Below are positions 2 to 14,688 of a stretch of DNA of 64,000 nt, in pieces. Position numbers and translations under genes: made by a program. Source of the stretch: Candidatus Omnitrophota bacterium (GTDB taxonomy: Bacteria > Omnitrophota > Gorgyraeia > Tantalellales > Tantalellaceae). The DNA lies in contig DAONGE010000002.1 in assembly GCA_035403965.1 (NCBI GenBank), forward strand, positions 64,466-128,465, read 5' to 3'. A model generated the notes under the pieces. That model saw only the letters and a list, made by a program, of their open reading frames with translations. It had not been told where the DNA came from and searched no databases. The first letter of the stretch is position 1. Each line of letters begins with the position of its first letter.

Positions 2-1267
2 CTCTATTGCATTGTAGGCGGACTTATTTCCTGGCAGGCGTTCCTCATGAGCGTTATTGCCGGAGGTGTATATGTTTTTTTATCGAGGCACATGGTCCGG
101 AAATCAAGATCGATAGGCGAAGAGGGGGTTAAGTATACCAACGATGCCCAGCGATGTATCGTCGAGGATCTGAACGGCATAAAATTCATAAAAAGCAATG
201 CCCTGGAGGACCAAAGAAAAAAGACGCTTTTTGGTTTGATGACGGCGATCGGCACACTTGAGTTCAAAAGGGAGAAATATGCAGCTATCCTCGATACGAT
301 GCCGGAAGTTATGATGACCGCCGTCATGTGCGTTGTGTTCTATGTTTCTTATGTGCACCTTAAAGTCCCCGGCGAGAATCTTTTGGTGCTTCTTGCTGTA
401 CTTTACAGGTTCAACAGGCGAATAATGGCTTTGCAAACATTGCGTCAGCGCATTGTGAACTATATCCCATTCTATGAGTTGTGTTCCGAACTGGTAAGGA
501 CGGCGGGTCTGGCCAGGGAAGTGACCGGAACGGAAAAATTCGATGTGCTCAAGACCGGGATACGTTTCTCGTCAGTGGATTTTTCGTATTCCGAGGAGCA
601 TCCCGTACTTAGGGGGATAGACCTCTTTATCAAAAAGAACGAATTTGTGGCGTTCCTGGGCAAATCGGGCAGCGGGAAGACAACTATATTGGACCTTATA
701 ACAGGGTTGTTGAAGGCGCCCAAAGGGGGCGTGTCAATAGACGATATCCCGATAGGCAGATACGATATTTTTACATGGAGAAAAAAGTTGGGATATGTTT
801 CGCAGGACCCGTTTTTGGTAAACGGTACGATTGCCGACAATATACGCATGAGCGCTCTTTCAGTGAGCGATGAAGAGGTGCTTAACGTCGCAAAAATGGC
901 GTATGCGGACGAATTCATATGCCAGTTTCCGGACGGATACAGTACGGTCGTGGGCGATAGCGGCATGAAACTTTCGGGAGGGCAGAGACAGCGCATCGCT
1001 CTGGCCAGGGCACTTGTGCGCAAGCCACAGGTGCTGATACTCGATGAGGCGACAAGCGCGCTCGATAACAATTCGGAAAGTATGATACAAAGGGCGATAG
1101 ACGGGCTCAAGGGGCATCTTACGATAATAGTCGTCGCGCACCGTCTTGCCAGTATAAATTCGGCGGACAAGGTGTATCTTTTGCATGAAGGCAGGATCAG
1201 CAACAAGGGTACGCTTGAAGAGCTGAGAAAGAATTCCAGTGTTTTTCGGGAGTTGTATCATGGCTGA
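2..1267 (+). CDS. ABC transporter permease/ATP-binding protein, MsbA-like exporter (5' partial, runs off window start)
   Basis: The reading frame is open from base 2. A C-terminal TMD segment is followed by an NBD with Walker A GKSGSGKTT, signature LSGGQRQR and Walker B ILDEAT. Confidence 0.8.
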   Translation, partial: LYCIVGGLISWQAFLMSVIAGGVYVFLSRHMVRKSRSIGEEGVKYTNDAQRCIVEDLNGIKFIKSNALEDQRKKTLFGLMTAIGTLEFKREKYAAILDTMPEVMMTAVMCVVFYVSYVHLKVPGENLLVLLAVLYRFNRRIMALQTLRQRIVNYIPFYELCSELVRTAGLAREVTGTEKFDVLKTGIRFSSVDFSYSEEHPVLRGIDLFIKKNEFVAFLGKSGSGKTTILDLITGLLKAPKGGVSIDDIPIGRYDIFTWRKKLGYVSQDPFLVNGTIADNIRMSALSVSDEEVLNVAKMAYADEFICQFPDGYSTVVGDSGMKLSGGQRQRIALARALVRKPQVLILDEATSALDNNSESMIQRAIDGLKGHLTIIVVAHRLASINSADKVYLLHEGRISNKGTLEELRKNSSVFRELYHG

Positions 1268-2615
1268 AAACCGAAAAAACATCCTGTTCCTGGTGCATTC
1301 CAATAACGATATGGATTATTTCCTTCCCGTGATACATGGCATGAACGGAAAGGGCGATATGGCTCCGGTAGTTTTCTTTCTTGTATCGGAAGAGGAATCC
1401 CATATAAGCGCGGCGCATAAGTATCTTTTGGAGGAGCTGAATGTGCCGGTGTATTCGCTGAAAGGATCCGTCAAAAAAGGGTTTTTCGGAAGATGGTTAA
1501 CGGTTGTTTCGACCCGTTCTTTGAAATTATCCGGTACCGTGCCGATAAAGATGTTGTGCGGGTCCGGGGATGTGATGAGATCTTTCTGGAAAATGCTCTA
1601 TATAGTGGTCGAGCGGCTTTTCTCCGTTTTTCCGCAAATGTTTTTCCGAAAGGAGCATATCGCGGAGCTCATAGAAGGGGTGTCCCCGTCCCTTGTAGTT
1701 GTCGATGTCCAAAGGATAGAAAAGCATGCTCCTTTCAGCGACCTGAGATCGTATTGCAATTCCACAATCGTCGCATTCTGTAAAAGAAAAAAAATACCCG
1801 TTTTTATGATGGAGCACGGGGCGATCAGCATAGTGGATTTCGGCGACTTGAATAAATGCGTTTTTTTTCGGTTCGACAACGAAACATGTGATTTTGAGGA
1901 GAGATATTACAGGCCGGATATCATGGCGCTGAGCTTTGACCATGAACGTAAAGGTTATTCCAGGCTCATAGGGCCGGGAACCGTGGTAAAAGCTTTGGGA
2001 ACTGTACGGTACGACAGGGCATGGAACGAATATATTCAAGGCATTTCGGTCCGGATAGATAAAAGCGGTATCAGAAAAAATAAATTCACGGTGCTGTATG
2101 TCGTAGCCCCTCTAAGCAAAGAAGCGAACGAAGTGATGACCCCGGAGATACTTGCAATAGCCGAAAAATTCCCCGAAACGGAACTTTGGGTAAAGCTCCA
2201 TCCGAGATATCAGTGGGCGATCTCGGACGATATAAGTAAAGGCAGCGATAGAATAAGGTTGTTCCGCAACGACGTGGATATTAATGTTCTTTTGCACTAC
2301 GCGGATCTCGTCATATCTCCGCTCTCGAGCGTGCTTTTTCAGGCCATCATCGATGGCATACCCGTAATATTGTATGAGAGGTGGAAAAAGTTGATGAATT
2401 TTACCGGTAGGACGGCTTTCGAAGATACAGAGTGTATTTTTAGAGCATCCGAGCCCGAGATGTTGTACAATCATTGTTCAAGGGTAATTGCCGGGGAGAG
2501 ACCCTCAATGAGAGATTTTAGGGAGTTTTATAAGAAAAAGATATCGTCGGGCATTGATATGGACAAGAGCATGGTAGAGGGCTACCTAAAGGCTATTAGG
2601 GAGGCTTGCAGGTAA
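1260..2615 (+). CDS. CDP-glycerol glycerophosphotransferase (TagB/TagF)-like / capsule polysaccharide biosynthesis family protein
   Basis: The ATG at 1260 overlaps the upstream stop (ATGGCTGA). The C-terminal KLHPR and ISPLSSV motifs resemble the Glyphos_transf family. Confidence 0.4.
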   Translation: MAENRKNILFLVHSNNDMDYFLPVIHGMNGKGDMAPVVFFLVSEEESHISAAHKYLLEELNVPVYSLKGSVKKGFFGRWLTVVSTRSLKLSGTVPIKMLCGSGDVMRSFWKMLYIVVERLFSVFPQMFFRKEHIAELIEGVSPSLVVVDVQRIEKHAPFSDLRSYCNSTIVAFCKRKKIPVFMMEHGAISIVDFGDLNKCVFFRFDNETCDFEERYYRPDIMALSFDHERKGYSRLIGPGTVVKALGTVRYDRAWNEYIQGISVRIDKSGIRKNKFTVLYVVAPLSKEANEVMTPEILAIAEKFPETELWVKLHPRYQWAISDDISKGSDRIRLFRNDVDINVLLHYADLVISPLSSVLFQAIIDGIPVILYERWKKLMNFTGRTAFEDTECIFRASEPEMLYNHCSRVIAGERPSMRDFREFYKKKISSGIDMDKSMVEGYLKAIREACR

Positions 2616-2854: not shown

Positions 2855-4300
2855 ATGAATAATAGGCCAGAAATATTAGACATGGTAGTTCCTAATGCAG
2901 GTAAAGTGCTCGATGTCGGATGTGCTGAGGGAGACGTTGGCAGTGCCTTAAAAAAGAGGACAAATTGTGAGGTAATTGGAATTGAACTAGATCCGGGAAA
3001 AGGTGAGATTGCAAAGAAAAAAATTGATAGGGTTATTATTGGAGACGTGGAAAAGTTGGTTATTGATTTCCCTGAGAAGTGGTTCGATTGTATAATTTTT
3101 GCCGATGTGCTTGAACATCTTAGAGATCCTTTGTCGGTTATTACCAAATATGGCAAGCACCTTAAAGATAGAGGGAAAATGATAGTTTGTATTTCAAACG
3201 TACGACATATAAGCATCATAGCGGATCTCCTTTTTTGGGGCAGATGGGAATGCAAAGAGTATGGTCTTATGGACTCAGGTCATATTAGGTTTTTTACACG
3301 AAAAAGTATATTGAGAATTTTCCAAAACGCAGGGTTTAGGGTTATTTCGAGTAAAAAGATACTGAGTTTGAAAGGTTCGGGAATGTTAAGTAAATTGACG
3401 TTTGGTATTTTTGACGAATTTCTTACGGCCAAGTATGTTTTTGAGATAGCTAAAATGGAATCGGTTTTCAAGGGATATAAAAAGGTTGATTCTATAACGC
3501 GTGAAGCATGGGGAGAGAACTGGCGCGACATAAGTATTGATAGAGTGATGGAGATTTTTGACTATACTAGGGTGAAAAGACTTTTGGAGACGATCAGGGC
3601 GGAATTGCCCGAAAAGGGTAAAATCCTTGAAGGAGGGTGCGGTCTTGGCCCCTGGCTTATAAAGCTGAGGTCTCTGGGATACGATATAGAAGGCGTTGAT
3701 TATGACGAGTCGAGTGTTGGCAAAATTAGGGCATTTGACAGTAGTATATCCGTATCAGTCGCGAATATCGAACAAATGCCCTTTCCTGACCGGTATTTTA
3801 GCGTGTACCTTTCTTTTGGGGTCCTTGAGCATTTCTACGAAGGGCCAGAAAAGGCAGTGAGAGAGGCGTGGCGAGTGCTTGAGGATGGGGGAAAATTCAT
3901 TATTTTTTTACCGCACATGAACTTTTTACTGGCTGTCAGATTCCCTTTTGAAAAGATGAAAAAGAACGTTTTCATACGGCGAATACTGGGTAAAAAAGAA
4001 AAAAATTTTTATTATGAAAAATATTTCAATCGAAGAGAAATATCTGGTATTTTGAGAAAGAACGGGTTTGATATAGAAAATATTAGGCCAGTTGATCATA
4101 TTTTCTCGTTTGTTCAGTTCTCTGCGATTTTCAGAGATAAGAATACTTACGATGGGGAGAATCGTATCGCCGTGAAGATATCAGACTCTCTAAAGGGGTT
4201 GTTCCCATGGGGAACTGCCGGGTCGATGATGATAATAGCAAAAAAAAGGTATAAAAGAGGGGCGGAGCATGAAACTTGTAATACAAATACCCTGTCATAA
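2855..4300 (+). CDS. Tandem class I SAM-dependent methyltransferase (two MTase domains)
   Basis: Two glycine-rich SAM motifs are present, VLDVGCAEGDVG and ILEGGCGLGPW. Each is followed by an acidic loop and FxxVLEH. Confidence 0.7.
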   Translation: MNNRPEILDMVVPNAGKVLDVGCAEGDVGSALKKRTNCEVIGIELDPGKGEIAKKKIDRVIIGDVEKLVIDFPEKWFDCIIFADVLEHLRDPLSVITKYGKHLKDRGKMIVCISNVRHISIIADLLFWGRWECKEYGLMDSGHIRFFTRKSILRIFQNAGFRVISSKKILSLKGSGMLSKLTFGIFDEFLTAKYVFEIAKMESVFKGYKKVDSITREAWGENWRDISIDRVMEIFDYTRVKRLLETIRAELPEKGKILEGGCGLGPWLIKLRSLGYDIEGVDYDESSVGKIRAFDSSISVSVANIEQMPFPDRYFSVYLSFGVLEHFYEGPEKAVREAWRVLEDGGKFIIFLPHMNFLLAVRFPFEKMKKNVFIRRILGKKEKNFYYEKYFNRREISGILRKNGFDIENIRPVDHIFSFVQFSAIFRDKNTYDGENRIAVKISDSLKGLFPWGTAGSMMIIAKKRYKRGAEHETCNTNTLS

Positions 4301-5216
4301 TGAGGAGAACACTTTACCTGTTACCCTGAGAGACCTGCCGAAAAAGATAGAGGGGGTAGATGTTATCGAGACACTTATTATCAACGATGGCTCGACCGAT
4401 GGAACGGTGGATACGGCCAAGAGCAACGGGGCGAACCATATCCTTAATATGCCGTCGAAAAGGGGCCTGGCCGAAGCTTTTAAAAAAGGGCTTAGCAGGG
4501 CGGTAGAATTGGGGGCCGATATCATTGTGAACACCGATGGGGATAATCAGTATAAGGGAGAGGATATCCCGCTTCTTGTGCGCCCCATCATAGAAAAACG
4601 TGCGGAGATAGTTGTGGGGTGCAGGGATATTTCCGCTATACAACATTTTTCTTTTATGAAAAAGATGCTTCAGAAATTCGGAAGCCATATGGTCAGAAAG
4701 TTCTCAAATACCGATATTCCGGACACAACAAGCGGATTCCGGGCATATTCTAGAGAGGCGGCCATGCAGCTTAATGTGTTTTCCGAATATACCTATACGC
4801 TTGAGACGATCATACAGGCCGGCAGAAAGGGGATACCGATCACACATGCGCAAATCAGGACGAACCCAAAATTGCGCGAATCCCGTCTGATAAAGAGCAT
4901 ACCTGCATATATAGGTAAGTCCGTGGCTACGATGCTCAGGGTGTATCTTATGTATGAACCGTTGAAATTCTTTACGCGTGTCGGTGGTTTTTTGCTCGCA
5001 CTGGGGGCGATAACCGGCGTACGGTACGCTTATTTCTTCTTCTTTGCGGCTAAAAAAGGCGGACATGTCCAGTCCCTGATCCTTGGATCGATATTGTGCA
5101 TAATCGGTTTTCTTGTCATAGTGATCGGTCTTTTAGGTGATATTATTGCCGCTAACCGGAAACTGAATGAGGAGACCCTTTATCGTATCCGGAAATTTGG
5201 GGGACAGGCAAAATAA
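4269..5216 (+). CDS. GT2 polyprenol-phosphate glycosyltransferase (ArnC/GtrB-like) with C-terminal TM helices
   Basis: The N-terminal GT2 region has IPCHNEE, INDGSTDGT and a DGD-type motif. The C-terminal TM pair (FLLALGAITGV...ILCIIGFLVIVIGLLGDII) is typical of the ArnC/DPM1 bacterial type. Confidence 0.65.
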   Translation: MKLVIQIPCHNEENTLPVTLRDLPKKIEGVDVIETLIINDGSTDGTVDTAKSNGANHILNMPSKRGLAEAFKKGLSRAVELGADIIVNTDGDNQYKGEDIPLLVRPIIEKRAEIVVGCRDISAIQHFSFMKKMLQKFGSHMVRKFSNTDIPDTTSGFRAYSREAAMQLNVFSEYTYTLETIIQAGRKGIPITHAQIRTNPKLRESRLIKSIPAYIGKSVATMLRVYLMYEPLKFFTRVGGFLLALGAITGVRYAYFFFFAAKKGGHVQSLILGSILCIIGFLVIVIGLLGDIIAANRKLNEETLYRIRKFGGQAK

Positions 5217-5219
5217 AGA

Positions 5220-6284
5220 ATGACCACATCGGATAAACAAAAAAGAATACTAATAGTTTCGCGAAAATATCCCCCGGCGATTGGCGGGATGGAAGCCTAT
5301 GCATTTTCATTTATTAAGTACATGTCCAAGATATACAGCGTGGAGAGCATCACACTGGGGTACGGACAAGTAAATTTATTATGGTTTCTTCCGTATGTGT
5401 TATTCCGGGTTGTTTTTTGCGCAAAAAGTTTTGACATTATTTATCTCTGTGACGCGTTGTTGTCTCCCGTGGGTGTTGTTGCAAAGATGTTTAGCCGTTC
5501 AAAGGTTGTTGTTACCGTGCACGGTCTCGATATTACGTATAGCGGGTTTTGTTATCAAAAGGTTATTCCAAAATGTGTCGCGGCGTTAGATAAAGTGGTT
5601 TGTGTAAGCCGCATGACTATGGAAGAATGCGCCAAACGAGGTGTACAGAGGGAGAAATGTCTGGTTATACCCAACGGAGTAGATGCCGATGTATTGGTCC
5701 GGGGTACGATCGAGAACGTTCCTGAAGATTTGCGTCATGTGGTTGATGCCACGTTCGGTAAAAAAATTATTATTACTGTCGGGCGACTTGTGAAGCGTAA
5801 AGGGGTAGAGTGGTTTATAGGCGAAGTCATGTCGGATATCCCGGACGATTATGTTTATTTCGTAATAGGAAGCGGTCCGGAGCGGAATAATATCCAAAGT
5901 GCTGTGGAACGCAAAGGTTTAGAGCGAAGGGTTTTTTTATTAGGGCAAGTCTCGGAACGAACGCTTGAATGGATATATGCCCATGCGGATGTTATGGTGA
6001 TGCCGAATAGAAAAATCGCAGGAGATCCGGAAGGGTTTGGCATTGTGGCGATATCGGCCGCTGTCAGAGGATTGCCGGTTGTCGCCAGTAATATTGACGG
6101 TTTACCGGATGCTGTAATAAATGGGAGGACAGGCTGGCTTGTTGATCCTGACGAGCGACGATCTTTTGTCGACAAGATAGTTAATCCCGGACTTGATAGG
6201 CGAACGGTTGCGGATTCATCTCGTGTTTTTTTCTGGGAACACGTCATTTTAAATTATCAGCAGATGATCGGCGGGGCGATATGA
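5220..6284 (+). CDS. Glycosyltransferase family 4 (GT1 clan)
   Basis: The C-terminal EGFGIV...GLPVVASNIDGLPDAV..GRTGWLV motif is the GT4 EX7E region. Confidence 0.7.
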   Translation: MTTSDKQKRILIVSRKYPPAIGGMEAYAFSFIKYMSKIYSVESITLGYGQVNLLWFLPYVLFRVVFCAKSFDIIYLCDALLSPVGVVAKMFSRSKVVVTVHGLDITYSGFCYQKVIPKCVAALDKVVCVSRMTMEECAKRGVQREKCLVIPNGVDADVLVRGTIENVPEDLRHVVDATFGKKIIITVGRLVKRKGVEWFIGEVMSDIPDDYVYFVIGSGPERNNIQSAVERKGLERRVFLLGQVSERTLEWIYAHADVMVMPNRKIAGDPEGFGIVAISAAVRGLPVVASNIDGLPDAVINGRTGWLVDPDERRSFVDKIVNPGLDRRTVADSSRVFFWEHVILNYQQMIGGAI

Positions 6285-7405
6285 GGATATTCACTGTAAA
6301 TATGGCCCCGGTTAATCCGCCGCATAACGACGGAGTGAAAAATATTCTTGTTAGTATATCTGAAAAAATAAAACGGCATGACTTTATCTTTGTTTCATCG
6401 GCATATGCAGGGGCATTTCCTTTGCGATCTAACGTGCGATACATAAGGTCTATCTTTGAAAAACCGGGGCGGCATAGCATGTCTGTCGGGCAGATCATGT
6501 TTGTTCTGATTGCGATGATGTTCAATCTGCCGGGAACGGATATTCTTCAGTTTTTTATAACTCCGAAACGCGGTTATACCGTTTTTTTGCGGGCTATTAC
6601 GAAATTATCTAATAAAAAATCGATCCAGGTCGTACCGTCGGTGCATACCTTGTTTGCGAACAATGATAAGGTGTCGGACGATATCTTTTTTGCCGACAGA
6701 GTAATAGTGCAATCGGATTATGCGATGTCAAAACTTTGTGCGCTTGGGGTAAAAAACGTGTCGCGGATATATCCGGGGATTAATACCGAGGAATATAAAT
6801 ACAGGCCCGATTGCCGGCGCGCTGCGAATAGGCGAAGGGTGATATATGCCGGCACATATAAGCTTATAGATACGGCTTATTCGCTCGAGGCTTTTCTGGA
6901 GATTGTGCGTGGCGTATGTGTTAAAGATCCGTCCGTGGAATTTGTTATGGCGTGCAGGCTGCGTACAAAAAAGGATATAGAACTTAAAGAAACATTCAAG
7001 CGTATGGTTTTGAAGTCTGATTTGGCGGACAGATTTCTGTACCTGGATAGGGTCGTCGATATGCCGGTGGTAATGAATACTTGTGATATAGGCATTATGC
7101 CGTGTAAACGTGTGATGCCCGGAGTTTTGGAAATACCTATGGCGCTTATAGAAGGGGCCGCTTCGGGGTTGGCTGTAATTTATGGGGATGTTCCTCCTCT
7201 TATGGAATTAGAAAAAAAAGGGATCGGAGTGATGTTGTCTTCTTCTTTGCCGTCGGACTACTCGCAAAAAATAATAGAGCTGCTGAATGATGCGTGCAAA
7301 ATAGAAGAGATACGTGAGAAATCCGGAAAAGCGGTTGTAGAATATTTTGATGTAAATAAAATGGCGGAAGAATATGGGCGGGTCTATGATTCGCTGCGGG
7401 AGTGA
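6281..7405 (+). CDS. Glycosyltransferase family 4-like
   Basis: It overlaps the upstream gene by 4 nt (ATGA). The C-terminal EGAASGLAVIYGDVPPLME fits the GT-B fold. Confidence 0.5.
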   Translation: MRIFTVNMAPVNPPHNDGVKNILVSISEKIKRHDFIFVSSAYAGAFPLRSNVRYIRSIFEKPGRHSMSVGQIMFVLIAMMFNLPGTDILQFFITPKRGYTVFLRAITKLSNKKSIQVVPSVHTLFANNDKVSDDIFFADRVIVQSDYAMSKLCALGVKNVSRIYPGINTEEYKYRPDCRRAANRRRVIYAGTYKLIDTAYSLEAFLEIVRGVCVKDPSVEFVMACRLRTKKDIELKETFKRMVLKSDLADRFLYLDRVVDMPVVMNTCDIGIMPCKRVMPGVLEIPMALIEGAASGLAVIYGDVPPLMELEKKGIGVMLSSSLPSDYSQKIIELLNDACKIEEIREKSGKAVVEYFDVNKMAEEYGRVYDSLRE

Positions 7406-7406
7406 A

Positions 7407-8900
7407 ATGGAAGAAAATGTCAGATATTTTCTGAACGATGACTATCCGGCTGACGATGTTACGGCATATACGCTTAAGCGGATGGCCGATGTCGATGGAG
7501 TCATAAAACCTGTGGTGGCCTTGCCGGATCTGCATTTTAAGGGGTCGTATCATACCCCTACGGGTGTTGTTGTTCTGACAAAAGATAAAATAATACCCAA
7601 GTTTCTGAACGCGAATTGTGGGATGAGTTTTGTGGTTACCACGCTAACGGTGGATGATATCGATAACGGAAAAATCGATTGTTTGTTCAATGCGCTCAAA
7701 AGACATATATCCGTAGCGCTAAGACTTTCCCCGGTAATAACCAGGTACGATCTGGGGAAAATCATAGAGACGGGGGCCGAATGGAGTTTCCGCAGGTTCG
7801 GTCTTGATGAGTCAAACTTGCAGAATATGGAAAACTGCGGGAATATATTTAAAGGGAAGAATATTGATCCGAATGATATCGATGCCAGTTTGCCGGATTT
7901 TATCAAAGACGTCGGGATGTTGAGTATGGGTGTACTGGGATATGGCAATCATTTTGTTGAAATGCAGGCGGTGGATAGCGTGATGGATGCGGAGGCGGCG
8001 AAAATGTTCGATTTGCCCACCGGCAGGATATGCTTTATGATACACGGGGATTCGCGTGGATTTGGCCAGTCGGTGATCGACCATTATTCCAAATATTCAA
8101 AAAAACTGCTGGGGTTACAGCAGGCGTATAAAAGGGTATATTATTCCATGCTGGCTAACAGGAATATCCCATCAGGCATTAAGATCTGTATGGATAGATT
8201 AAATGTTAATTTGAACCGGTATAAGTCGGTGGTGTTTTCCGGGAAGGGTGCAAAAATAAAACGGAGCGTAGAATATCGTTCGATGGATTTGTCGTCAACC
8301 GATGGACGCAGATATATGACGAGTAATTATTGCGCATTGAACTTAGGATATGCAAATAGGGCATATATAGCGGGGACCATTGCCGGGTCGTTACGGGAAA
8401 TTTTTAAAGATAAAAAAATGAATGTTACGATATTGAATGACGGGAATCATGATTCTCTTCAGGAAGAGAATATCGACGGGAAAAATTTTTTGGTGCACAG
8501 GAACGGTGCGGCAAGGGCTCTGCCGCCCGCATATTTTAACGACCATCCGATATTCGCGCGTACAGGCCAGCCGGTGCTCTTGCCTACCGCTCTTGGCAGG
8601 GATTCATATCTTTGTGCTGCAAGAGTGGGGTGTAAAGATTCCTGTTATTCCGCTTGTCACGGGACAGGCCGTCTTGTCGATAGGGGCGAAGCCAGGGGGG
8701 TTTTTACGGATGATGATGTTTACCGGGAAACAGAGGCGAAACGGATGAGAGTGTTCGATTACGGTAAAGGAAAGATATCAGAGGAAGCCCCGGCGGCTTT
8801 TAAAGATGCAAAAAAGATATTGGAAACCATGGAACGCTATAATATCGCCTGTCCGGTGGTTAAATTGCGGCCGGTGGCTGTACTCAAAGGGTGGAGATGA
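7407..8900 (+). CDS. RtcB-family 3'-phosphate RNA ligase homolog (divergent)
   Basis: Motifs were matched to RtcB from memory: ALPDLH, NANCGM (metal-binding Cys), GYGNHFVE, IHGDSRGFG, VHRNGAARA and CHGTGR. The ATG follows 2 nt after the upstream stop. Confidence 0.6.
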   Translation: MEENVRYFLNDDYPADDVTAYTLKRMADVDGVIKPVVALPDLHFKGSYHTPTGVVVLTKDKIIPKFLNANCGMSFVVTTLTVDDIDNGKIDCLFNALKRHISVALRLSPVITRYDLGKIIETGAEWSFRRFGLDESNLQNMENCGNIFKGKNIDPNDIDASLPDFIKDVGMLSMGVLGYGNHFVEMQAVDSVMDAEAAKMFDLPTGRICFMIHGDSRGFGQSVIDHYSKYSKKLLGLQQAYKRVYYSMLANRNIPSGIKICMDRLNVNLNRYKSVVFSGKGAKIKRSVEYRSMDLSSTDGRRYMTSNYCALNLGYANRAYIAGTIAGSLREIFKDKKMNVTILNDGNHDSLQEENIDGKNFLVHRNGAARALPPAYFNDHPIFARTGQPVLLPTALGRDSYLCAARVGCKDSCYSACHGTGRLVDRGEARGVFTDDDVYRETEAKRMRVFDYGKGKISEEAPAAFKDAKKILETMERYNIACPVVKLRPVAVLKGWR

Positions 8901-8901
8901 A

Positions 8902-9534
8902 ATGTTAATAGCGTTTTGCGGTCTGGATGGTGCGGGGAAAACGACTCAGGCTAATTCTGTCGTAAAAATGTTTGAGTCACGCGGCTTAAAATGCGGGTAC
9001 AGACATTTTATAAAAGGAACGTTGAGTTATTATCTGACGCACAATATAGTTGGAAAGGTTAGCATGGGTTTCCGCAGCAGCTTGGAACAAAAGTTGCGGA
9101 AAGAAAAGAAGGGCTTAGATTCTGTGCTTCTTTCCTGGGTGAAGAGGCTGCTTGTATTGGTCGATGTCGTTTATTTTAATCTGAGATACGGGAACCGCAA
9201 AGGGGATGTATTAAACAATATCGTCTGTGATCGATATTATTATGACGAATTGGTGCAATTAAACTACTTGGGGTTTAAGCTAGGAGTAATGGAGAAGTTT
9301 ATAAAACGGATCATGATAGAGCCTGACAGGATATTTTACATAGATATTCTTCCCGAAACGGCTTTTACGCGTAAATCCGAGGGGTTTTGTGAAGAGTATT
9401 TTAGGATCAAAAGTAAGAGATATAAAGACTATTTGCCAAAAAGCACTGTGTGTATACCGGGGGATGGGACCGAGGGTGAAATAAAAGATATTATTTTGTC
9501 AGAGATGAAAAAGTTCCTTCCCGGAGAGCATTAA
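8902..9534 (+). CDS. dTMP kinase-like P-loop nucleotide kinase
   Basis: The N-terminal IAFCGLDGAGKTTQ P-loop and a CDRYYYD (DRY) motif are characteristic of thymidylate kinase. The ATG follows 2 nt after the RtcB-like stop. Confidence 0.5.
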   Translation: MLIAFCGLDGAGKTTQANSVVKMFESRGLKCGYRHFIKGTLSYYLTHNIVGKVSMGFRSSLEQKLRKEKKGLDSVLLSWVKRLLVLVDVVYFNLRYGNRKGDVLNNIVCDRYYYDELVQLNYLGFKLGVMEKFIKRIMIEPDRIFYIDILPETAFTRKSEGFCEEYFRIKSKRYKDYLPKSTVCIPGDGTEGEIKDIILSEMKKFLPGEH

Positions 9535-9624: not shown

Positions 9625-10581
9625 TTGGTGATAAATATCTTTAATAAAAAAACATTCCAAGTGGCTTTTGTTGTTGTTGTCACGGTAGTGTTTATATTTT
9701 TTATCCAGTCGCATTTAGACTATTTAAAAAAAGCAGCGAGTATGAGCCCGCTGTTGATCGTTGCCGTGATAAGTATGGATATTCTTAGTAAGGCTTGCAG
9801 CGGGTTAAAAATAAAGATCGTTTTAAAAAAATTTGGCATCAGGCTTTCTTTTAAGGAATGGTATGGCCTGTCGTCCATGTCGGCGTATTACAATTATTTT
9901 TTTTCGAAAAGCGGCACAGTGTTAGCCGCCACATATGTCAGGAAGAAATACGGCTTTAATTATTCGAAATATGCGGGTTTTTTAATGGGAGATGTGGCTA
10001 CCGTAGTTATTGCGTCCGGAGTGTTGGGTACGGTTGCATCGTTGCTCTGGGAAAATTTTACAAAAAATTCCACGCACAGTATTGTTGTTGTGTCTTTTTT
10101 TATCTTGTTTGTCATGGCGTCCCTGGTTTTTTTCATTCCAAAGTTTAGATTGCCGAAGCGGGGAATAATGACAAAAATAAACAGCGCAATGGATGGTTGG
10201 TATTCGGTAAAAGCAAAACCGGACATTCTGGTCGCCATGTTTTTTTTGAATATGGCTATCATTGTCATATTTGCTATACGGTATTACGTGCTTTTTAGGG
10301 TTTTTTCTGATCCTGTCCCGTTCTCGATATGCTGCCTGGTCTCTCCGCTTGCAAATCTTACGCAGATATTAAGCGTGGTGCCATCGGCATATGGGCTAAG
10401 GGAAGCAGTGATGGGCGGTATGACTAAATTGTATGATTTTGGTTTTGTTTCCGGGGCGATAGTTTCTATAATAGACAGGGTGATCATGATGCTGGTCTTT
10501 TTTATTTTAGGCCCGCTGTTCACCTATATGTTGATGAAAAAGACGGGATATGACAGGGAAGATAGGAGGGATGCGGAGTGA
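9625..10581 (+). CDS. Polytopic membrane protein, flippase-like (LPG-synthase-TM/UPF0104-type)
   Basis: It has 6-8 predicted TM helices and an UPF0104-like sequence pattern. The start codon is uncertain (TTG/GTG). Confidence 0.35.
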   Translation: MVINIFNKKTFQVAFVVVVTVVFIFFIQSHLDYLKKAASMSPLLIVAVISMDILSKACSGLKIKIVLKKFGIRLSFKEWYGLSSMSAYYNYFFSKSGTVLAATYVRKKYGFNYSKYAGFLMGDVATVVIASGVLGTVASLLWENFTKNSTHSIVVVSFFILFVMASLVFFIPKFRLPKRGIMTKINSAMDGWYSVKAKPDILVAMFFLNMAIIVIFAIRYYVLFRVFSDPVPFSICCLVSPLANLTQILSVVPSAYGLREAVMGGMTKLYDFGFVSGAIVSIIDRVIMMLVFFILGPLFTYMLMKKTGYDREDRRDAE

Positions 10582-12098
10582 ATGGGAAAACAATGCCTTG
10601 CTACATTTTTTTGTTTTTCATGTCGCTTTATGCATTTTTTTCAATAGGGCATTTTGCCGGTGACGGGTACCAGGATTATCTTACAGCCGAAAGCATAGTT
10701 CTGGATGGCAACCTGACTTTAATGGACCGGCCCGATGATGTTGATCAGCTTGCTTATAAGACCAAGGTGGGAGTAAGAGGCGCCAACGGCGAATTATATT
10801 CATCCCGTGGATCGGTGGGTATGGCTTTATTGCTTGTGCCGTTCTATTTCGCTGGGCATATAGTGTCTTTTGTCGCCCGGAATGTGCCGCATGATTATGT
10901 TACACAATTATGCGTTTCTTTTGCGAATCCGTTTTTTACTGCGCTTAATTGTGTTTTGGTTTTTTTGTTGGGGAAAAGAATGAGGTTCGGAGATAGAACA
11001 TCGGTATGGATTAGCCTGCTTTTTGGCCTTTCGACCATGTGTCCGGTATACGCACGGACAGGGTTTTCTGAGCCGGCTATGATGTTTTTTACCATCTTTG
11101 CGGCATATTTTATTTTTCGATATAAAGAAACATGTGCGTTTTTTGATATTATGATGTCGGGGATGTCTCTGGGGTTAATAGCGGTAGTGAAATTCCAGGG
11201 AGTAGTTTTGTTGCCCGCATTTTTTATTTATTTCATATATTGCGCGCTTGAAAAAAAAGATTTTAAACGCATCGCTATACATTCTCTGGTGTTTGTTCTT
11301 ATGCCTATGTGTTTTGTCGGGTCGGTGATGTTGCTGAACAAGGTGATATATGGTAGTTTCCTTTCTTTTGGCGGGTATGATGCTGTTGAATTTACAAAAC
11401 GCGTGGCCGGATCGCCGCATGTAATAAAGGGGTTATATTATTACCTTTTTAGCACGGGTAAAGGATTCTTCTTGTTCAATATTCCGGTTGTTCTCGGCTT
11501 TTTGGTATTTAATAAAGCTTTGGCAAAGAGAAAAAAAGAGACTATATTCATAATGGCATTATTTTTGCTAAACCTTATATTCTATGTTAAATCTTTCAGG
11601 CGGGGGTCGCTTTTCTCATGGGGGCCGAGATATCTTATGCCATCCGTTCCTTTTCTTATGCTTTTGGCCGGGGTGTATATCGATGAGATCAAAAGCGCCG
11701 CCGGTAGAATCTTTTTGTACATATGTGCTGGGACCGGGATTCTTATCTCATTACCGTGCATGTTTGTGAATCAGGCAAAATATTATAATTTCATTGTAGA
11801 AAAATTTAAAATTGATGAGTATATGATAAATTTCATTCCAGATCTTTCTCCGATGGGTGGGGCGTGGCATATGTTCCTTGGTGCTATCGGCGTTATTTCG
11901 AAACACTTCACATATTCGCCCGATTATAGGTTTATCGATCCGCTCACTCAAAGTATGGAAGGGTATGCTTATGTGGACCTGTGGTCAGTGAAGATAATGG
12001 AATTGGCCCCACAGTACTCTTGGTTGGTGTTTATGGCGTTGTTCGGATTGCTTGTAATAACAGTGATTTCATTCTTAAAATTATGCAGAATAAAATAG
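10578..12098 (+). CDS. Large polytopic membrane protein, putative GT-C fold glycosyltransferase
   Basis: It has more than 10 TM helices and sits within a glycan cluster. Its start overlaps the upstream stop. Confidence 0.3.
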   Translation: MNGKTMPCYIFLFFMSLYAFFSIGHFAGDGYQDYLTAESIVLDGNLTLMDRPDDVDQLAYKTKVGVRGANGELYSSRGSVGMALLLVPFYFAGHIVSFVARNVPHDYVTQLCVSFANPFFTALNCVLVFLLGKRMRFGDRTSVWISLLFGLSTMCPVYARTGFSEPAMMFFTIFAAYFIFRYKETCAFFDIMMSGMSLGLIAVVKFQGVVLLPAFFIYFIYCALEKKDFKRIAIHSLVFVLMPMCFVGSVMLLNKVIYGSFLSFGGYDAVEFTKRVAGSPHVIKGLYYYLFSTGKGFFLFNIPVVLGFLVFNKALAKRKKETIFIMALFLLNLIFYVKSFRRGSLFSWGPRYLMPSVPFLMLLAGVYIDEIKSAAGRIFLYICAGTGILISLPCMFVNQAKYYNFIVEKFKIDEYMINFIPDLSPMGGAWHMFLGAIGVISKHFTYSPDYRFIDPLTQSMEGYAYVDLWSVKIMELAPQYSWLVFMALFGLLVITVISFLKLCRIK

Positions 12099-13000
12099 AT
12101 ATACTGATTTTGAATTATAATGGTAAGTCTCTTTTGGAATCGTATCTGGGCTCCGTGGTAGAGGCTGCATCTTTAGCGTCCGCTGAGTGTGGGGTTTATG
12201 TGGTGGATAATCGTAGTAGTGACGGAAGCGTGGAATATGTAAGGGCGAATTATCCGTCGGTAAAAGTGATAGTTGCTGCCGAGAACAAAGTCTTGATTTC
12301 ATATAATGACGTTGTGAAAGATTTGGCGAGTAACATTGTCATATTTTTAAATAACGATATGTCAGCTGACAAGGGTTTTATTGATCCGCTTGTCGCAGAA
12401 TTCAAGGACCCTAAAGTAATGTTTGCCGCTCCGAGGATAATGAATTTCGATGGCACATATAACGGCGGCAGATCATATATGAAATTGAGCGCGGGTGCGA
12501 TAAAAGTTGTTGTCGATGAGGGCAATTATATGAAGTCCGGAGAGACCTGTGCGATCTCAACCGGGGCTTTTCGACGGGAAATGTTCCTGGAGCTTGGCGG
12601 ATTTGACGATCTTTACTTGCCGGGGATATGGGAGGATGTTGATATTTGTTTTAGGGGATTAATCAAAGGATATAAGGGGAAGTACGTTCCGCAGAGTGTT
12701 ATATATCATGCTGAATCCACTACGTTTCATAGAGAATATGGTACGAGCAAAAAAATGGTGATCGCGCACAGGAATATGTTTCTGTTCTTATGGAAAAATA
12801 TAATAGATAAAAGGATATTATTGTCGAATATTTTCTTATCAGTACCGCGGGCCCTTTTTCTTTTTTTAAAAGGGAATCCGGAAATATTATATGGATTGTT
12901 TGCGGCAGTCTGGAAAATTAAAACTGTCATGACCAAAAGAAAGGAATGGTTGGCGGGAAGTCCTTTGCGGGTCATGAAAGATTCGGATCTGATAAAATGA
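12083..13000 (+). CDS. Glycosyltransferase family 2
   Basis: It carries ILILNYNG, YVVDNRSSDGS and an EDVD acidic motif. Confidence 0.65.
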   Translation: MQNKIDILILNYNGKSLLESYLGSVVEAASLASAECGVYVVDNRSSDGSVEYVRANYPSVKVIVAAENKVLISYNDVVKDLASNIVIFLNNDMSADKGFIDPLVAEFKDPKVMFAAPRIMNFDGTYNGGRSYMKLSAGAIKVVVDEGNYMKSGETCAISTGAFRREMFLELGGFDDLYLPGIWEDVDICFRGLIKGYKGKYVPQSVIYHAESTTFHREYGTSKKMVIAHRNMFLFLWKNIIDKRILLSNIFLSVPRALFLFLKGNPEILYGLFAAVWKIKTVMTKRKEWLAGSPLRVMKDSDLIK

Positions 13001-14688
13001 AAATCGCGCTTCTTACAAGTGACAATATAGACGGTTTGATAGTAAGCCATAGGCTTTTTGTGGATAAGATAGATCTTCAGGCGATCGTATATGAAAAAAA
13101 GAAAGTTACGGTTAAGGCTTTTGTTAAAAGGTGTGTTTATCTTTTTCTGGGACGTATCGGGAATATTGTTTTTTTCGGATACAATAAAATAAAGATCCAA
13201 TCCGTCGGAAATATCAATTCTGAAGAAACTATGGCAGTTTTGAGAGAAATAAGGCCGGATCTGATCATAGTCGTAGGCACGCGCAAGCTTGAACCGGCAA
13301 TATTTAATTTTCCCAAATACGGTACGATAAATCTCCATTCAGGGATCCTTCCTTATTACAGAGGTGCAGATTCGGAATTTTGGGCCATGTATAACGGGGA
13401 GATCGATAAAATAGGTGTTACCGTGCATTACCTGGATAAGGAGCTAGACTCAGGGGATATTATCCTTACTGAAAAACAGAAAGTCCTGGCCGTGGATAAA
13501 CATAATAATCTCAGAATGAAAAATCTTATTGTCGGCGCGGCTAAGATATCCGAGGCGGTGCGCAAAATAGAAAAAAACGAGATAACGAGATATAAACAGG
13601 ATACGAGTTTGGCTGTGACATATAAAACAGTAACTTCAAAAGAAATAGCAGGTTTTTACGCGTATAAAAGATCTTTCGAGAAAAGCCGTGTGTCTGTGAA
13701 AAAAAGTTTTGGTCCTGAAGGGATGACAGTGTCGGAAAATGTGGCAAAGAGGCCATCTTTGTTGCTTGAAAAACCGGGTGATGTCCGGGAATCCGGGATT
13801 TTTTGTCTCAGGATAGATGCCGACGAATACAGTGAAAATAATTTCCGCAGTTATTATCCTGTTTTCAAGCGATACAATAAAGCTACTTCCATATTTTTTA
13901 GCATAAATTCTTTCAAAGAGGCAAAAGGGGCGATCATTGACTGTAAAACGATGGGGGTGGATATAGGGTCGCACGGTTTTTATCATCATACTTATAACGA
14001 TTATGAGAGCAATCGATATAATCTGATCAGGGCCAGGGAGTTTTTAGAAGGGTTAGGCATAGATGCGAAAGGATTTGTCTCACCGATGGGGAAATGGAAT
14101 CGCGATCTGGCCAAGGCGCTTGAGGACGAAAAGTTTAAATATTCGTCCGAATTCGCCTACGATTATGCAGGATTCCCTAGTTACCCTATTATCGATGGAA
14201 GATATTCTGACGTACTACAGATCCCGGTGTTCCCGGTTGCGCCGGAATTGTTTTTTGAAAAAGGATATGCTCCGGGAAAAATAATAGAATATTATAAAGA
14301 AGCTATAGATATGATGAGGGCAAATGGGGTCCCGGTCATCATTTATGCACATACGAACCCGAAATTCCAACAGGTGCCGGATCTGCTCGCGAGAATATGT
14401 GAGTATGCTGTGGACCGGTCAGGATTAGAGCCGATATCAATGACCGGTTTTTTTGAAAAATGGACAAAAACAAATGAGACGTTTAGGATAAGACGCACGC
14501 CCGTATCTAGGGTCGTGAACGAGATGTTCGTCGGGGCGGAACTTCGCGAGAAAGCGTCTGAGCGCGTAAAAAAAGAGGTCAAAATTTTTTTGGATTATGA
14601 AATAATCACTCCGCCAGAAGAATTGCGGTGCGGGAAGTTGAAAAAGATGTTAAAATTATCTGCCAGAAGATTTTTTAAATATAATTGA
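12997..14688 (+). CDS. Fusion protein with an N-terminal formyltransferase domain (Fmt/ArnA-FT-like) and a C-terminal NodB-type polysaccharide deacetylase/deformylase domain (ArnD-like)
   Basis: The N-terminal motif HSGILPYYRGADSEFWA is a formyl_trans_N HxSLLPxxRG variant. The C-terminal motifs are LRIDADEY and DIGSHGFYHH (NodB motifs). ATGA overlaps the upstream gene. Confidence 0.55.
   Translation: MKIALLTSDNIDGLIVSHRLFVDKIDLQAIVYEKKKVTVKAFVKRCVYLFLGRIGNIVFFGYNKIKIQSVGNINSEETMAVLREIRPDLIIVVGTRKLEPAIFNFPKYGTINLHSGILPYYRGADSEFWAMYNGEIDKIGVTVHYLDKELDSGDIILTEKQKVLAVDKHNNLRMKNLIVGAAKISEAVRKIEKNEITRYKQDTSLAVTYKTVTSKEIAGFYAYKRSFEKSRVSVKKSFGPEGMTVSENVAKRPSLLLEKPGDVRESGIFCLRIDADEYSENNFRSYYPVFKRYNKATSIFFSINSFKEAKGAIIDCKTMGVDIGSHGFYHHTYNDYESNRYNLIRAREFLEGLGIDAKGFVSPMGKWNRDLAKALEDEKFKYSSEFAYDYAGFPSYPIIDGRYSDVLQIPVFPVAPELFFEKGYAPGKIIEYYKEAIDMMRANGVPVIIYAHTNPKFQQVPDLLARICEYAVDRSGLEPISMTGFFEKWTKTNETFRIRRTPVSRVVNEMFVGAELREKASERVKKEVKIFLDYEIITPPEELRCGKLKKMLKLSARRFFKYN

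Follow-up and report, generated by a model that had tools for sequence, protein, structure and literature searches.

To our knowledge, every characterised RtcB acts on nucleic-acid ends, be it in tRNA splicing, XBP1/HAC1 splicing or RNA repair. The Myxococcus RtcB3 reportedly carries out 5'-phosphate capping. Canonical RtcB also moves GMP to phosphate ends other than those of RNA, which yields DNA3'pp5'G caps (PMC8051266). Moving GMP from the His-GMP adduct onto a phosphomonoester other than an RNA 3' end is also what we propose for the homologue described here (RtcB-like); the capping substrates, however, are nucleic acids, and the substrate we infer for RtcB-like is a phosphomonoester of a glycan pathway. 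The canonical enzymes (P. horikoshii PH1602, E. coli RtcB and human RTCB) share with RtcB-like the family, the fold, the histidine nucleophile, the bridging cysteine and three histidine metal ligands, together with Asn202, Glu206, Lys480, Arg238, Arg408 and Arg412. The context differs: RtcA, RtcR, archease and tRNA splicing for the canonical enzymes, glycan assembly and an obligate kinase for RtcB-like.

Envelope-glycan activation modules include HldE (a heptose kinase/adenylyltransferase) with GT9, LicA/LicC/LicD for choline and Fkp for fucose. As in the locus described here, genes for a kinase, an enzyme that transfers NMP and a transferase occur together, are fused in relatives and lie inside LPS or polysaccharide clusters. 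All three enzymes here are, however, of other folds. The kinase has the thymidylate kinase (Tmk) fold rather than that of a ribokinase, APH or GHMP kinase, and the candidate NMP transferase is RtcB-like or a PF14907 protein rather than a cytidylyltransferase or PF00483 enzyme; RtcB works via covalent His-GMP. The three-component polyprenyl-phosphate sugar systems (GtrA/B/C; ArnC/E/F/T) resemble the cassette in its polyprenyl-phosphate GT2, flippase-like protein, GT-C enzyme and ArnA-N- and ArnD-like domains. Neither a kinase/RtcB-like pair nor two additional GT4 enzymes are part of those systems. In lasso peptide biosynthesis, PsmK (HPr-kinase-like) makes a phosphomonoester and PsmN (nucleotidyltransferase-like) elaborates the phosphate with a hexose (PMC9266682). 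This resembles the step proposed here, except that the PsmK/PsmN substrate is a peptide. A second divergent RtcB group, which also occurs in glycan clusters, adjoins an HprK-related P-loop kinase.

Layout of the locus

The window, that is, the whole stretch of DNA analysed, comprises 64,000 nt of a Candidatus Omnitrophota MAG (GCA_035403965.1, contig DAONGE010000002.1, 64,466-128,465 forward), and all coordinates are those of the window. The RtcB-like gene (7407..8900, +) and the kinase gene (8902..9534, +; 210 aa) are translationally coupled and lie inside a 37-kb envelope-glycan region. The RtcB-like open reading frame of the original prediction is present; it was given as 498 aa, and the translation has 497. 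A longer start is available (ATG at 7374), and the 497-aa start agrees with most homologues. The stop codon of the upstream GT4 gene (GT4b; 7403-7405) is separated by 1 base from the RtcB-like ATG, which has GGGAG upstream, so the proposed coupling to this gene holds. The RtcB-like stop is at 8898-8900 and the kinase ATG, preceded by GGTGGAG, is at 8902. The kinase thus follows directly, as predicted, with a gap of 1 nt instead of 2.

All neighbouring genes of the cassette are on the + strand. Upstream are a tandem double SAM-methyltransferase (2855..4300), GT2a (4269..5216), GT4a (5220..6284) and GT4b (6281..7405). Methyltransferases recur at the position of the first of these in many related cassettes. 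GT2a is a GT2 enzyme that resembles polyprenyl-phosphate glycosyltransferases and has a membrane segment at its C-terminus, and its best NCBIfam matches (AglJ, PpgS and ArnC) are all below threshold. GT4a is a GT4 glycosyltransferase resembling BshA, MshA and TuaC. GT4b is a divergent GT-B/GT4 glycosyltransferase identified by Pfam Glyco_trans_1_4 and Glycos_transf_1. Downstream of the kinase is the expected flippase-like membrane protein (9625..10581; LPG_synthase_TM, 74.8 bits), followed by a GT-C-type membrane glycosyltransferase (10578..12098; PMT_2 / LA_3751 family), the GT2 glycosyltransferase GT2b (12104..13000) and a fused formyltransferase and polysaccharide deacetylase resembling ArnA-N and ArnD (12946..14688). 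GT2a, GT4a and GT2b are conserved members of related cassettes, and GT4b is the conserved third member of a triad with RtcB-like and the kinase. Pfam annotation of the surrounding region agrees with the glycan-operon setting first suggested. TagF-like glycerophosphotransferase genes are found near the pair in the window and in a related locus (L007), and genes for an ABC transporter and for methyltransferases are seen repeatedly across cassettes.

Several other origins or roles of the pair were considered and rejected. G+C content and GC skew over 6-10 kb are the same as in the flanks, and the cassette is conserved as a whole, which argues against a recent horizontal insertion. PADLOC gave no meaningful match for the five proteins checked (RtcB-like, kinase, GT4a, GT4b and the flippase-like protein), the only one being a 14.9-bit P-loop match; a defence or conflict system was rejected on this basis. 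A structured RNA or tRNA substrate encoded nearby was rejected because neither ARAGORN (0 genes) nor Rfam at gathering score (0 families) detected any in the window. No PF00483-type sugar-1-phosphate nucleotidyltransferase was matched among the scanned proteins of the window's glycan region.

The RtcB-like protein and its partner kinase

RtcB-like matches Pfam PF01139 over the full profile (2-426 of 426) with 261 bits (gathering score 27) and E 2.9e-77. Its best PDB sequence matches are to P. horikoshii RtcB, at E about 5e-47. The AlphaFold2 model has a pLDDT of 91 and a pTM of 0.92, and significant Foldseek matches to the PDB are solely to RtcB structures (TM 0.66-0.77, E down to 2e-35). The motifs quoted in the original prediction are all present in the translation, as FLNANCGMSF, LGYGNHFVEM, MIHGDSRGFG, LVHRNGAARA and SACHGTGR. 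The family that it proposed and the RtcB fold are therefore confirmed. The protein is divergent, at 26-27% identity to canonical RtcB, and has gained a basic 44-residue helical insertion. It misses every NCBIfam equivalog threshold for RtcB (PRK09588, 135 vs 407 bits; TIGR03073, 108 vs 272 bits). It is a member of a monophyletic, glycan-cluster-specific RtcB clade of about 50 sequence clusters, which are 39-57% identical to it; beyond them identity falls sharply to 32% or less.

We compared the active sites of 48 clade members and 54 canonical sequences, using P. horikoshii (Pho) numbering and the residue roles given in two structural papers (PMC8051266; PMC9745838). The residues C98, H203, H234, H329, H404, N202, E206, K480, R238, R408 and R412 are kept in 46-48 of the 48 clade members, and all but R238 and R412 are kept in at least 47. 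His418 of RtcB-like (in CHGTGR) corresponds to Pho His404, the position of the nucleophile that accepts GMP, and is present in 48/48. In canonical RtcB, Mn1 is bound by Cys98, His234 and His329 (PMC8051266). The equivalents in RtcB-like are C71, H213 and H348, all invariant in the clade; the PDB alignment and the structural papers identify the third Mn1 histidine as H348 in DGNHD and not as the His of VHRNG. The Mn2 ligands are Asp95, Cys98 and His203. Cys and His are kept and Asp95 is replaced by Asn68, and 5/6 metal ligands are retained in the clade.

The alignment to P. horikoshii RtcB that had been suggested as a check thus bears out the histidine nucleophile, the cysteine and all metal ligands except Asp95. 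The Cys of NANCGM, which had been named as a metal ligand, is indeed the bridging ligand, but Asn, in place of the canonical Mn2 ligand, sits three residues N-terminal to it. The Asp95 column was scored in every sequence by counting back three residues from the invariant Cys, and it is Asn in 46/48 clade members and Asp in 52/54 canonical sequences. A reciprocal change is seen at N330, which is Asp in 48/48 clade members and Asn in 54/54 canonical sequences. G236 is changed to Asp and K351 to Asn, each in 46/48.

The guanine-specific contacts of RtcB are Glu206 and Lys480 (PMC9745838). Their counterparts in RtcB-like, E185 and K494, do not vary within the clade. Asn202, Arg238, Arg190, Gln194 and His242 contact the 5'-OH nucleic-acid strand (PMC8051266). 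Three of these are lost in the clade: R190 is Val, Met or Ile, Q194 is Ser (47/48) and H242 is Gln or Arg. N202, which anchors the nucleophile, is invariant, and R238 is kept in 46/48. Mutation of the E. coli counterpart of R238 slows sealing 200-fold and guanylylation just 3-fold (PMC8051266). In other divergent glycan-linked RtcBs R238 is not kept, being Gly in one locus (L173) and in 5/14 members of the second group. The conserved residues point to a putative role of RtcB-like in activating phosphate with GTP, in which His418 is the predicted GMP-accepting nucleophile. Its activity may differ or be lost through the Asp95 to Asn change, though the reciprocal N330 to Asp change lies nearby.

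The partner kinase matches Pfam Thymidylate_kin (PF02223) with 38.4 bits against a cut-off of 27, and contains the P-loop GLDGAGKTT and the motif CDRYYYD. Its model has a pLDDT of 91.7, and the best structural matches (Foldseek) are thymidylate kinases, with TM 0.6-0.72, in keeping with the thymidylate-kinase-like P-loop protein first described. The family shares with Tmk the fold, the P-loop (GxDGxGKT), the DR[YF] motif and the lid Arg, and the P-loop, DR motif and lid Arg are invariant in it; identity to Tmk, by contrast, is 16-24%. A true dTMP kinase was rejected, since the protein is below the curated equivalog cut-offs (TIGR00041, 43.4 vs 83.25; PRK07933, 19.4 vs 193). Pfam and PDB sequence alignments extend only over about residues 1-34 and 107-173; for residues 35-106, which in Tmk form the part that binds the NMP, they detect no similarity to a solved Tmk. 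His35, Phe92, Asp115 and Tyr122 are invariant or nearly so and are particular to the family. A single-sequence word-index search for relatives gave 2 proteins, and profile and exhaustive phmmer searches gave more; the family is small, with 806 representatives among 1.84 billion at E <= 1e-3. We know of no precedent for P-loop kinases of the Tmk fold as sugar or glycan kinases.

Conservation, displacement and fusions

A Tmk-like gene is directly downstream in 18/18 clade loci with downstream sequence and in 0/126 canonical RtcB loci. Glycosyltransferase or flippase homologues are found within 5 kb in 11/11 clade loci, compared with 1/87 canonical loci. The conserved cassette order is GT2a, GT4a, GT4b, RtcB-like, Tmk, flippase and GT-C. 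The whole cassette or its GT-RtcB-kinase core occurs in Omnitrophota MAGs, a 'Patescibacteria' MAG, Candidatus Moranbacteria, marine TARA contigs and a contig that we assign to an archaeon from its ribosomal protein L37e and LSM protein. The clustering of polyprenyl-phosphate GT2, flippase and GT-C genes that marks the Gtr and Arn systems is thus found here and is conserved across loci. With two exceptions, every locus compared has a GT4b orthologue immediately upstream of the RtcB-like or PF14907 gene. One of the exceptions (L004) has a GT2 upstream and only a weak GT4b-like match downstream on the other strand; in the other (L168) the upstream Pfam GT4 is below the phmmer threshold. Some parts of the cassette vary. 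LPG_synthase_TM is swapped for a Wzx-type Polysacc_synt flippase in some relatives, the formyltransferase and deacetylase are split in L001, and the formyltransferase is swapped for a carbamoyltransferase in L007.

Among the genes called in the annotated loci, and likewise in the window, the Pfam families of RtcA, archease, RtcR and PrfH were not found. Canonical-type RtcBs occur in Omnitrophota too (P0096). In the library covered, literature searches on RtcB with glycosyltransferases, thymidylate kinase, polysaccharide biosynthesis or Omnitrophota returned nothing relevant, and no paper there reports such a system.

In three loci, L169, L170 (Ardenticatenaceae) and L172 (Acidobacteria), the slot between GT4b and Tmk holds an unrelated gene of the PF14907 (NTP_transf_5) nucleotidyltransferase family, flanked by orthologous GT4b, Tmk-like and LPG_synthase_TM genes. 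PF14907 and Tmk-like pairs therefore occupy the identical slot to RtcB-like; the fold is unrelated and these pairs are likewise uncharacterised. Fusions tie the same genes together. A single protein (P0265) comprises Tmk-like, GT4b-type GT4 and PF14907 domains, another (P0266) is a Tmk-like and GT4 fusion, and four further proteins join Tmk-like to PF14907. The GT4 domain of P0265 aligns full length to GT4b (E 9e-27) and does not match GT4a (E 2.2). As in the HldE and LicACD modules, the three putative activities are co-encoded and co-inherited, as seen from the synteny and the Tmk, GT4b and PF14907 fusions. The fused PF14907 proteins have D-x-D where the three standalone proteins have N-L-D, so the nucleotidyltransferase activity of the latter is not assured. 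Neither GT4b nor the PF14907 proteins have sequence relatives in the PDB, and for the latter there is also no NCBIfam model; they gave no clue to the donor substrate. A pair of 'thymidylate kinase + PF14907' flanking PEP mutase is mentioned, unexplained, in a phosphonate survey (PMC8942020).

A candidate activation step in glycan assembly

The strict synteny, the nucleotidyltransferase in the same slot and the kinase fusions favour the 'non-canonical activation or modification step' of the original prediction, and the neighbourhood conservation that it called for is found across phyla and on the archaeal contig. We propose, with a probability of about 0.5, that the pair provides a dedicated step, carried out by two enzymes, within an envelope-glycan assembly cassette, acting through a kinase-made phosphate and its activation with GMP, and not in RNA repair. 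This suggests that the phosphate-activating chemistry of RtcB is used on a glycan building block instead of RNA. Chemistry and substrate are drawn from comparative genomics and active-site conservation, that is, from the observed family, fold, residues, synteny, displacement and fusions. The kinase would phosphorylate either a small building block or a sugar within a lipid-linked intermediate, to give a phosphomonoester. RtcB-like and GTP would form an enzyme-GMP adduct at His418, as expected from the conserved nucleophile, 5/6 metal ligands and guanine readers Glu185 and Lys494. GMP would then be moved to that phosphate, as canonical RtcB does on RNA or DNA 3'-phosphates, giving a GDP-linked, pyrophosphate-activated intermediate. 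GT4b would most probably take up the activated group and add it to a glycan that GT2a and GT4a have built on a polyprenyl-phosphate carrier. LPG_synthase_TM or Wzx would flip the unit and the GT-C enzyme would attach it to an acceptor. The order of action of the three enzymes is not readable from sequence.

In a less likely variant of the transfer step, RtcB-like itself would seal. A second molecule, which could be a sugar, a polyol or a lipid-linked unit, would attack the GMP-activated sugar phosphate through a hydroxyl, leaving a phosphodiester bridge and releasing GMP, and GT4b would only supply one sugar. Retention of N202 and R238 fits full ligation at least as well as it fits GT4b-coupled transfer, and R408 and R412 are also kept. 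The TagF-like genes nearby make phosphodiester-linked decorations plausible, and PsmK and PsmN provide a precedent in which a kinase and a nucleotidyltransferase-like enzyme build a phospho-hexose on phosphoserine (PMC9266682). Against this, the tight GT4b fusion is simpler if GT4b consumes the activated product, and R238 is not kept in the other glycan-linked RtcBs noted above. RtcB-like is also replaced by PF14907, and we know of no nucleotidyltransferase of that superfamily that carries out sealing. On balance we regard full ligation as unlikely.

It is improbable that RtcB-like leaves the kinase-made phosphate of the glycan with a stable G(5')pp cap, which might for instance end the chain or mark it for export, comparable to DNA3'pp5'G caps and to the phosphate-methyl cap made by WbdD. 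RtcB does form stable DNAppG caps, ABC transporter and methyltransferase genes recur in the cassettes, and the RNA 5'-OH-strand contacts are lost. We know, however, of no guanosine-containing envelope glycan; the GT4b fusion would be unexplained and the flippase and GT-C route needs no cap. We give a similarly small chance to a kinase that acts on nucleotides, recycling GMP/NMP or making a rare NDP, beside an RtcB-like protein of some other, possibly non-catalytic or regulatory, role. The Tmk fold of the kinase with its intact P-loop, DR motif and lid Arg, and the loss of Asp95 in RtcB-like, would agree with this; the divergent residues 35-106, the missed equivalog cut-offs, the small family, the kinase fusions to GT4b and PF14907 and the strong conservation of at least 10 RtcB-like active-site residues speak against it. 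The hitch-hiking RNA-repair module (RNA ligase plus polynucleotide kinase) raised in the original prediction is hardly credible and was rejected: all characterised RtcB enzymes known to us are RNA ligases and P-loop kinases accompany RNA ligases in other repair systems, but the pair is conserved in glycan cassettes of distant phyla and absent from canonical loci, RtcB-like is displaced by a nucleotidyltransferase, the kinase is fused to a glycosyltransferase, R190, Q194 and H242 are lost, neither RNA-repair partners in annotated loci nor RNA genes in the window nor meaningful PADLOC matches for the five proteins checked were found, and Omnitrophota have canonical-type RtcB as well.

We also consider, more tentatively than the activation step itself, that the RtcB family has a second, non-nucleic-acid function. 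Together with P-loop kinases (Tmk-like or HprK-related), such enzymes would use GTP and His-GMP to activate phosphomonoesters in glycoconjugate assembly and, in the boldest version, would seal sugar-phosphate to sugar-hydroxyl; this generalisation is doubtful at present. If the activation step is correct, RtcB chemistry would extend to carbohydrate or lipid-linked substrates. It would offer a first way into the function of three orphan families, namely the RtcB clade, the Tmk-like kinases and PF14907 with GT4b, and would point to a phosphate-containing or GDP-activated envelope component in poorly known lineages (Omnitrophota, CPR and some archaea). The sealing in the boldest version of the second function would amount to a new route by which Omnitrophota, CPR bacteria and archaea make phosphodiester-linked envelope glycans.

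The RtcB-like gene and its kinase neighbour

Translation gave an RtcB-like open reading frame at 7407–8900 (+; 497 aa), followed by a kinase reading frame at 8902–9534 (+; 210 aa). One base lies between the end of the upstream GT4 gene (7405) and the RtcB-like ATG, and again a single base separates the RtcB-like stop codon (8898–8900) from the kinase ATG. Shine–Dalgarno-like purine runs precede both starts. The original prediction had the first gene and its adjacency to the kinase right, with a length (498 aa) and a spacer (2 nt) that are each one too many; all the RtcB motifs it quoted were found in the translation. Identical proteins in NCBI come from Candidatus Omnitrophota MAGs and are named 'RtcB family protein' or 'hypothetical protein'; the RtcB-like records (HNX90588.1 and HPS19544.1) are 504 aa long, with a start further upstream.

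The Pfam RtcB model matches the 497-aa protein end to end (261 bits), and P. horikoshii (Pho) RtcB is its nearest solved sequence in a PDB sequence search (E about 5e-47). The AlphaFold2 model is confident (pLDDT 91.0, pTM 0.92), and Foldseek against the PDB retrieved RtcB structures only (TM 0.66–0.77). The 210-aa protein scores 38 bits against Pfam Thymidylate_kin (cut-off 27). Its nearest solved sequences are thymidylate kinases, matched weakly, and its confident model (pLDDT 91.7) also retrieved thymidylate kinases (TM 0.6–0.72, identity 16–24%). Family match and predicted fold thus confirm both proposed assignments, RtcB and thymidylate-kinase-like.

The surroundings are those of a glycan operon, as had been proposed. 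According to Pfam, a single large envelope-glycan region, entirely on the + strand, fills the window up to 37.8 kb. It opens with an ABC exporter fragment, a TagF-like protein and a double methyltransferase. Then come GT2a (4269–5216), GT4a (5220–6284), GT4b (6281–7405), the RtcB-like gene and kinase, a flippase-like LPG_synthase_TM protein (9625–10581), GT-C (10578–12098), GT2b (12104–13000) and a fused formyltransferase/deacetylase. UDP-GlcNAc 2-epimerase, further GT4, GT2, GT-C and GT9 genes, Bac_transf and Wzy_C follow, and a radical-SAM/SPASM protein, a GmhB-like phosphatase and two MGDG-synthase-like glycosyltransferases close the region. The remainder of the window holds housekeeping genes. 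No tRNA or Rfam family was found in the window, and PADLOC gave no meaningful match for the RtcB-like protein, kinase, GT4a, GT4b or flippase-like protein.

Some further features were noted. All gene-like ORFs of at least 150 aa across window 1–64000 lie on the + strand, and each 2-kb bin of the 64 kb has a positive GC skew (+0.12 to +0.29). The formyltransferase/deacetylase (12946–14688, 580 aa) resembles ArnA-N and ArnD; the two parts are separate genes in the related locus L001, and a carbamoyltransferase replaces the formyltransferase in locus L007. TagF-like genes of the CDP-glycerol glycerophosphotransferase family lie upstream of the cassette (window 1239–2615, L007:2581–3939); no cytidylyltransferase-type Pfam match was found among the scanned window proteins or L007 called genes. 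Outside the glycan region are a 1353-aa protein that matches NAD-glutamate dehydrogenase domains in part only (41764–45825), an ORF of 1108 aa that matches no Pfam family at E ≤ 1e-4 (55591–58917), and a small protein with a C-type lectin domain and a PEP-CTERM sorting signal (59340–59870).

A separate clade with an altered active site

A search of 5.8 billion proteins returned about 50 clusters, mainly from Omnitrophota, at 39–57% identity to the RtcB-like protein (370–657 bits); below these, identity drops abruptly to ≤32%. The clade is monophyletic in a neighbour-joining tree, and a clade HMM and a canonical HMM separate the two sets cleanly. Since canonical-type RtcBs are annotated in Omnitrophota too (protein P0096), the clade appears to behave as a paralogue of canonical RtcB. 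Four clade loci only were found among 185,579 species-representative genomes.

Residues were mapped by PDB alignment to Pho RtcB (48 clade and 54 canonical sequences), with roles taken from PMC8051266 and PMC9745838. The catalytic residues are kept in 46–48 of the 48 clade members, and in at least 47 for all but Arg238 and Arg412. These comprise the nucleophile His404 (H418 in the window protein), the Mn1 ligands C98, H234 and H329 (C71, H213 and H348), the Mn2 ligands C98 and H203, Asn202, the guanine readers Glu206 and Lys480 (E185 and K494), and Arg238, Arg408 and Arg412. Nucleotide binding and covalent catalysis therefore seem to be preserved.

Other positions are switched. Asp95 is Asn in 46/48 clade members (Asp in 52/54 canonical sequences), Asn330 is Asp in all 48 (Asn in 54/54), Gly236 is Asp in 46/48 (Gly in 54/54) and Lys351 is Asn in 46/48 (Lys in 52/54); in the window protein these four positions are Asn68, Asp349, Asp215 and Asn366. 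Three contacts to the 5'-OH nucleic-acid strand are also swapped, Arg190 to Val, Met or Ile, Gln194 to Ser and His242 to Gln or Arg. In addition, the clade carries an insertion of about 44 residues after the HxxSR motif, predicted to be helical, with 14 Lys/Arg against 2 Asp/Glu. These changes suggest remodelling of the second metal/leaving-group site and of the surface that binds substrate. The basic insertion (about residues 230–292 of the window protein) is modelled at pLDDT 59–86, lower than the rest; it may bind a membrane or a partner.

A conserved cassette with a replaceable member

A kinase-HMM match lies directly 3' of the RtcB-like gene in 18/18 clade loci with downstream sequence (roughly 13–16 non-redundant), as against none of the 126 canonical RtcB loci that these scans also retrieved. 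Homologues of the window glycosyltransferases or flippase occur within 5 kb in 11/11 clade loci and 1/87 canonical loci. The kinase and glycan genes are thus kept beside the RtcB-like gene across relatives, and from this genomic pattern we regard the kinase as its obligate partner.

At 50–57% protein identity the gene order is kept: GT2a, GT4a, (a radical SAM or methyltransferase gene), GT4b, RtcB-like, kinase, LPG_synthase_TM, GT-C, GT2b and a formyl- or carbamoyl-transferase with deacetylase. At 40–44% identity the core is retained and the surroundings differ. Marine TARA contigs carry GT2, RtcB-like and kinase genes beside GT4, GT9 and Wzx. GT4, GT4b, RtcB-like and kinase genes, beside Wzx and GT2, lie on a contig that is archaeal, as judged from its ribosomal protein L37e and LSM protein. 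Locus L168 has GT4, RtcB-like and kinase beside LPG_synthase_TM and GT2, and Candidatus Moranbacteria has GT4b, a very divergent RtcB, kinase, Wzx and GT-C. A tandem double SAM-methyltransferase (2855–4300) heads the window's cassette, and most related cassettes have methyltransferase or B12-radical-SAM genes there or close by; the product may be methylated, possibly on phosphate.

The kinase belongs to a small family, matched by 806 of 1.84 billion representatives at E ≤ 1e-3. The family extends past the RtcB clade, as seen from DISPLACEMENT and from fusions. In L169 and L170 (Ardenticatenaceae) and L172 (Acidobacteria) the order is GT4b, a PF14907 nucleotidyltransferase, kinase and LPG_synthase_TM; the reading frames overlap, and GT2 and GT-C genes are close by. 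The GT4b of these loci is the orthologue of the window GT4b (99–133 bits). Because this orthologue and the kinase flank the PF14907 gene (L169:6301–7329, L170:7003–8034, L172:7000–8004), it is exactly the RtcB-like slot that an unrelated nucleotidyltransferase-family protein fills. The three standalone PF14907 proteins read N-L-D where the kinase-fused ones (P0313, P0345, P0291 and P0265) read D-x-D, a difference that calls for caution over the nucleotidyltransferase activity of the former. The Mn2 site of the RtcB-like protein shows a parallel change, from Asp to Asn.

P0265 joins kinase, GT4 and PF14907 in a single polypeptide, P0266 joins kinase and GT4, and P0291, P0313, P0345 and P0346 join kinase and PF14907. 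The GT4 domain of P0265 aligns over its full length to GT4b (E 9e-27) and not to GT4a (E 2.2). Synteny, displacement and fusion are independent lines, and together they mark out GT4b, a putative NMP-transferring enzyme and the kinase as a functional triad.

Proposed role in glycan activation

Canonical RtcB forms His-GMP and transfers GMP onto a 3'-phosphate, which is then attacked by a 5'-OH; on DNA 3'-phosphates it leaves stable DNAppG caps (PMC8051266). The constant kinase, the substitution by a nucleotidyltransferase and the kept guanylylation machinery point to a chemistry common to the RtcB-like enzyme and PF14907, in which an NMP is transferred to a phosphomonoester that the kinase supplies. 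Relatives have GT4b fused to the kinase and to PF14907, and no PF00483-type sugar-1-phosphate nucleotidyltransferase was found among the scanned proteins of the window's glycan region, so that passing the product to GT4b is the most economical model. The kinase would convert X to X-P, the RtcB-like enzyme X-P to GDP-X, and GT4b would pass the activated group to a polyprenyl-phosphate-linked glycan; flipping and then GT-C transfer would come last. GT2a resembles AglJ, PpgS and ArnC below threshold. We give a probability of about 0.5 to the reading in which the pair serves a glycan pathway as a dedicated step and works by activating a kinase-made phosphate with GMP. HldE, LicA/LicC/LicD and Fkp follow the same activation logic, but the triad uses different folds throughout.

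The main alternative, which we consider rather unlikely, is that the RtcB-like enzyme finishes its own sealing step and yields a phosphodiester. That Asn202 and the sealing-specific Arg238 are kept favours such a reaction. It also has a parallel in PsmK/PsmN, a kinase and nucleotidyltransferase-like pair that builds phospho-hexose on a lasso peptide (PMC9266682).

A second divergent RtcB group (29–33% identity to the window protein; Gly/Ser at 95, Val at 330, His at 351) lies in glycan clusters too, at L174:6884–9521 and L171:6793–9545. One locus reads GT2, methyltransferase, epimerase, GT2, P-loop protein, RtcB, Wzx, UbiA, and the other ABC, three APH-type kinases, ABC, P-loop protein, RtcB, GT4. 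RtcB directly follows its P-loop protein in both. The two P-loop proteins are homologous (31% identity, E 3e-40), and their best NCBIfam matches, below threshold, are HprK-related kinases A and B (E ~1e-7). As this group shows, the pairing of a divergent RtcB and a P-loop kinase within glycan clusters is a wider theme. Among 8 million full texts, nothing relevant linked RtcB to glycosyltransferase, thymidylate kinase, polysaccharide biosynthesis or Omnitrophota. Judged from its residues and gene neighbourhoods, we rate the protein as an RtcB-fold enzyme with a conserved catalytic core, a probably remodelled substrate site and a new, conserved genomic role that would lie outside RNA.
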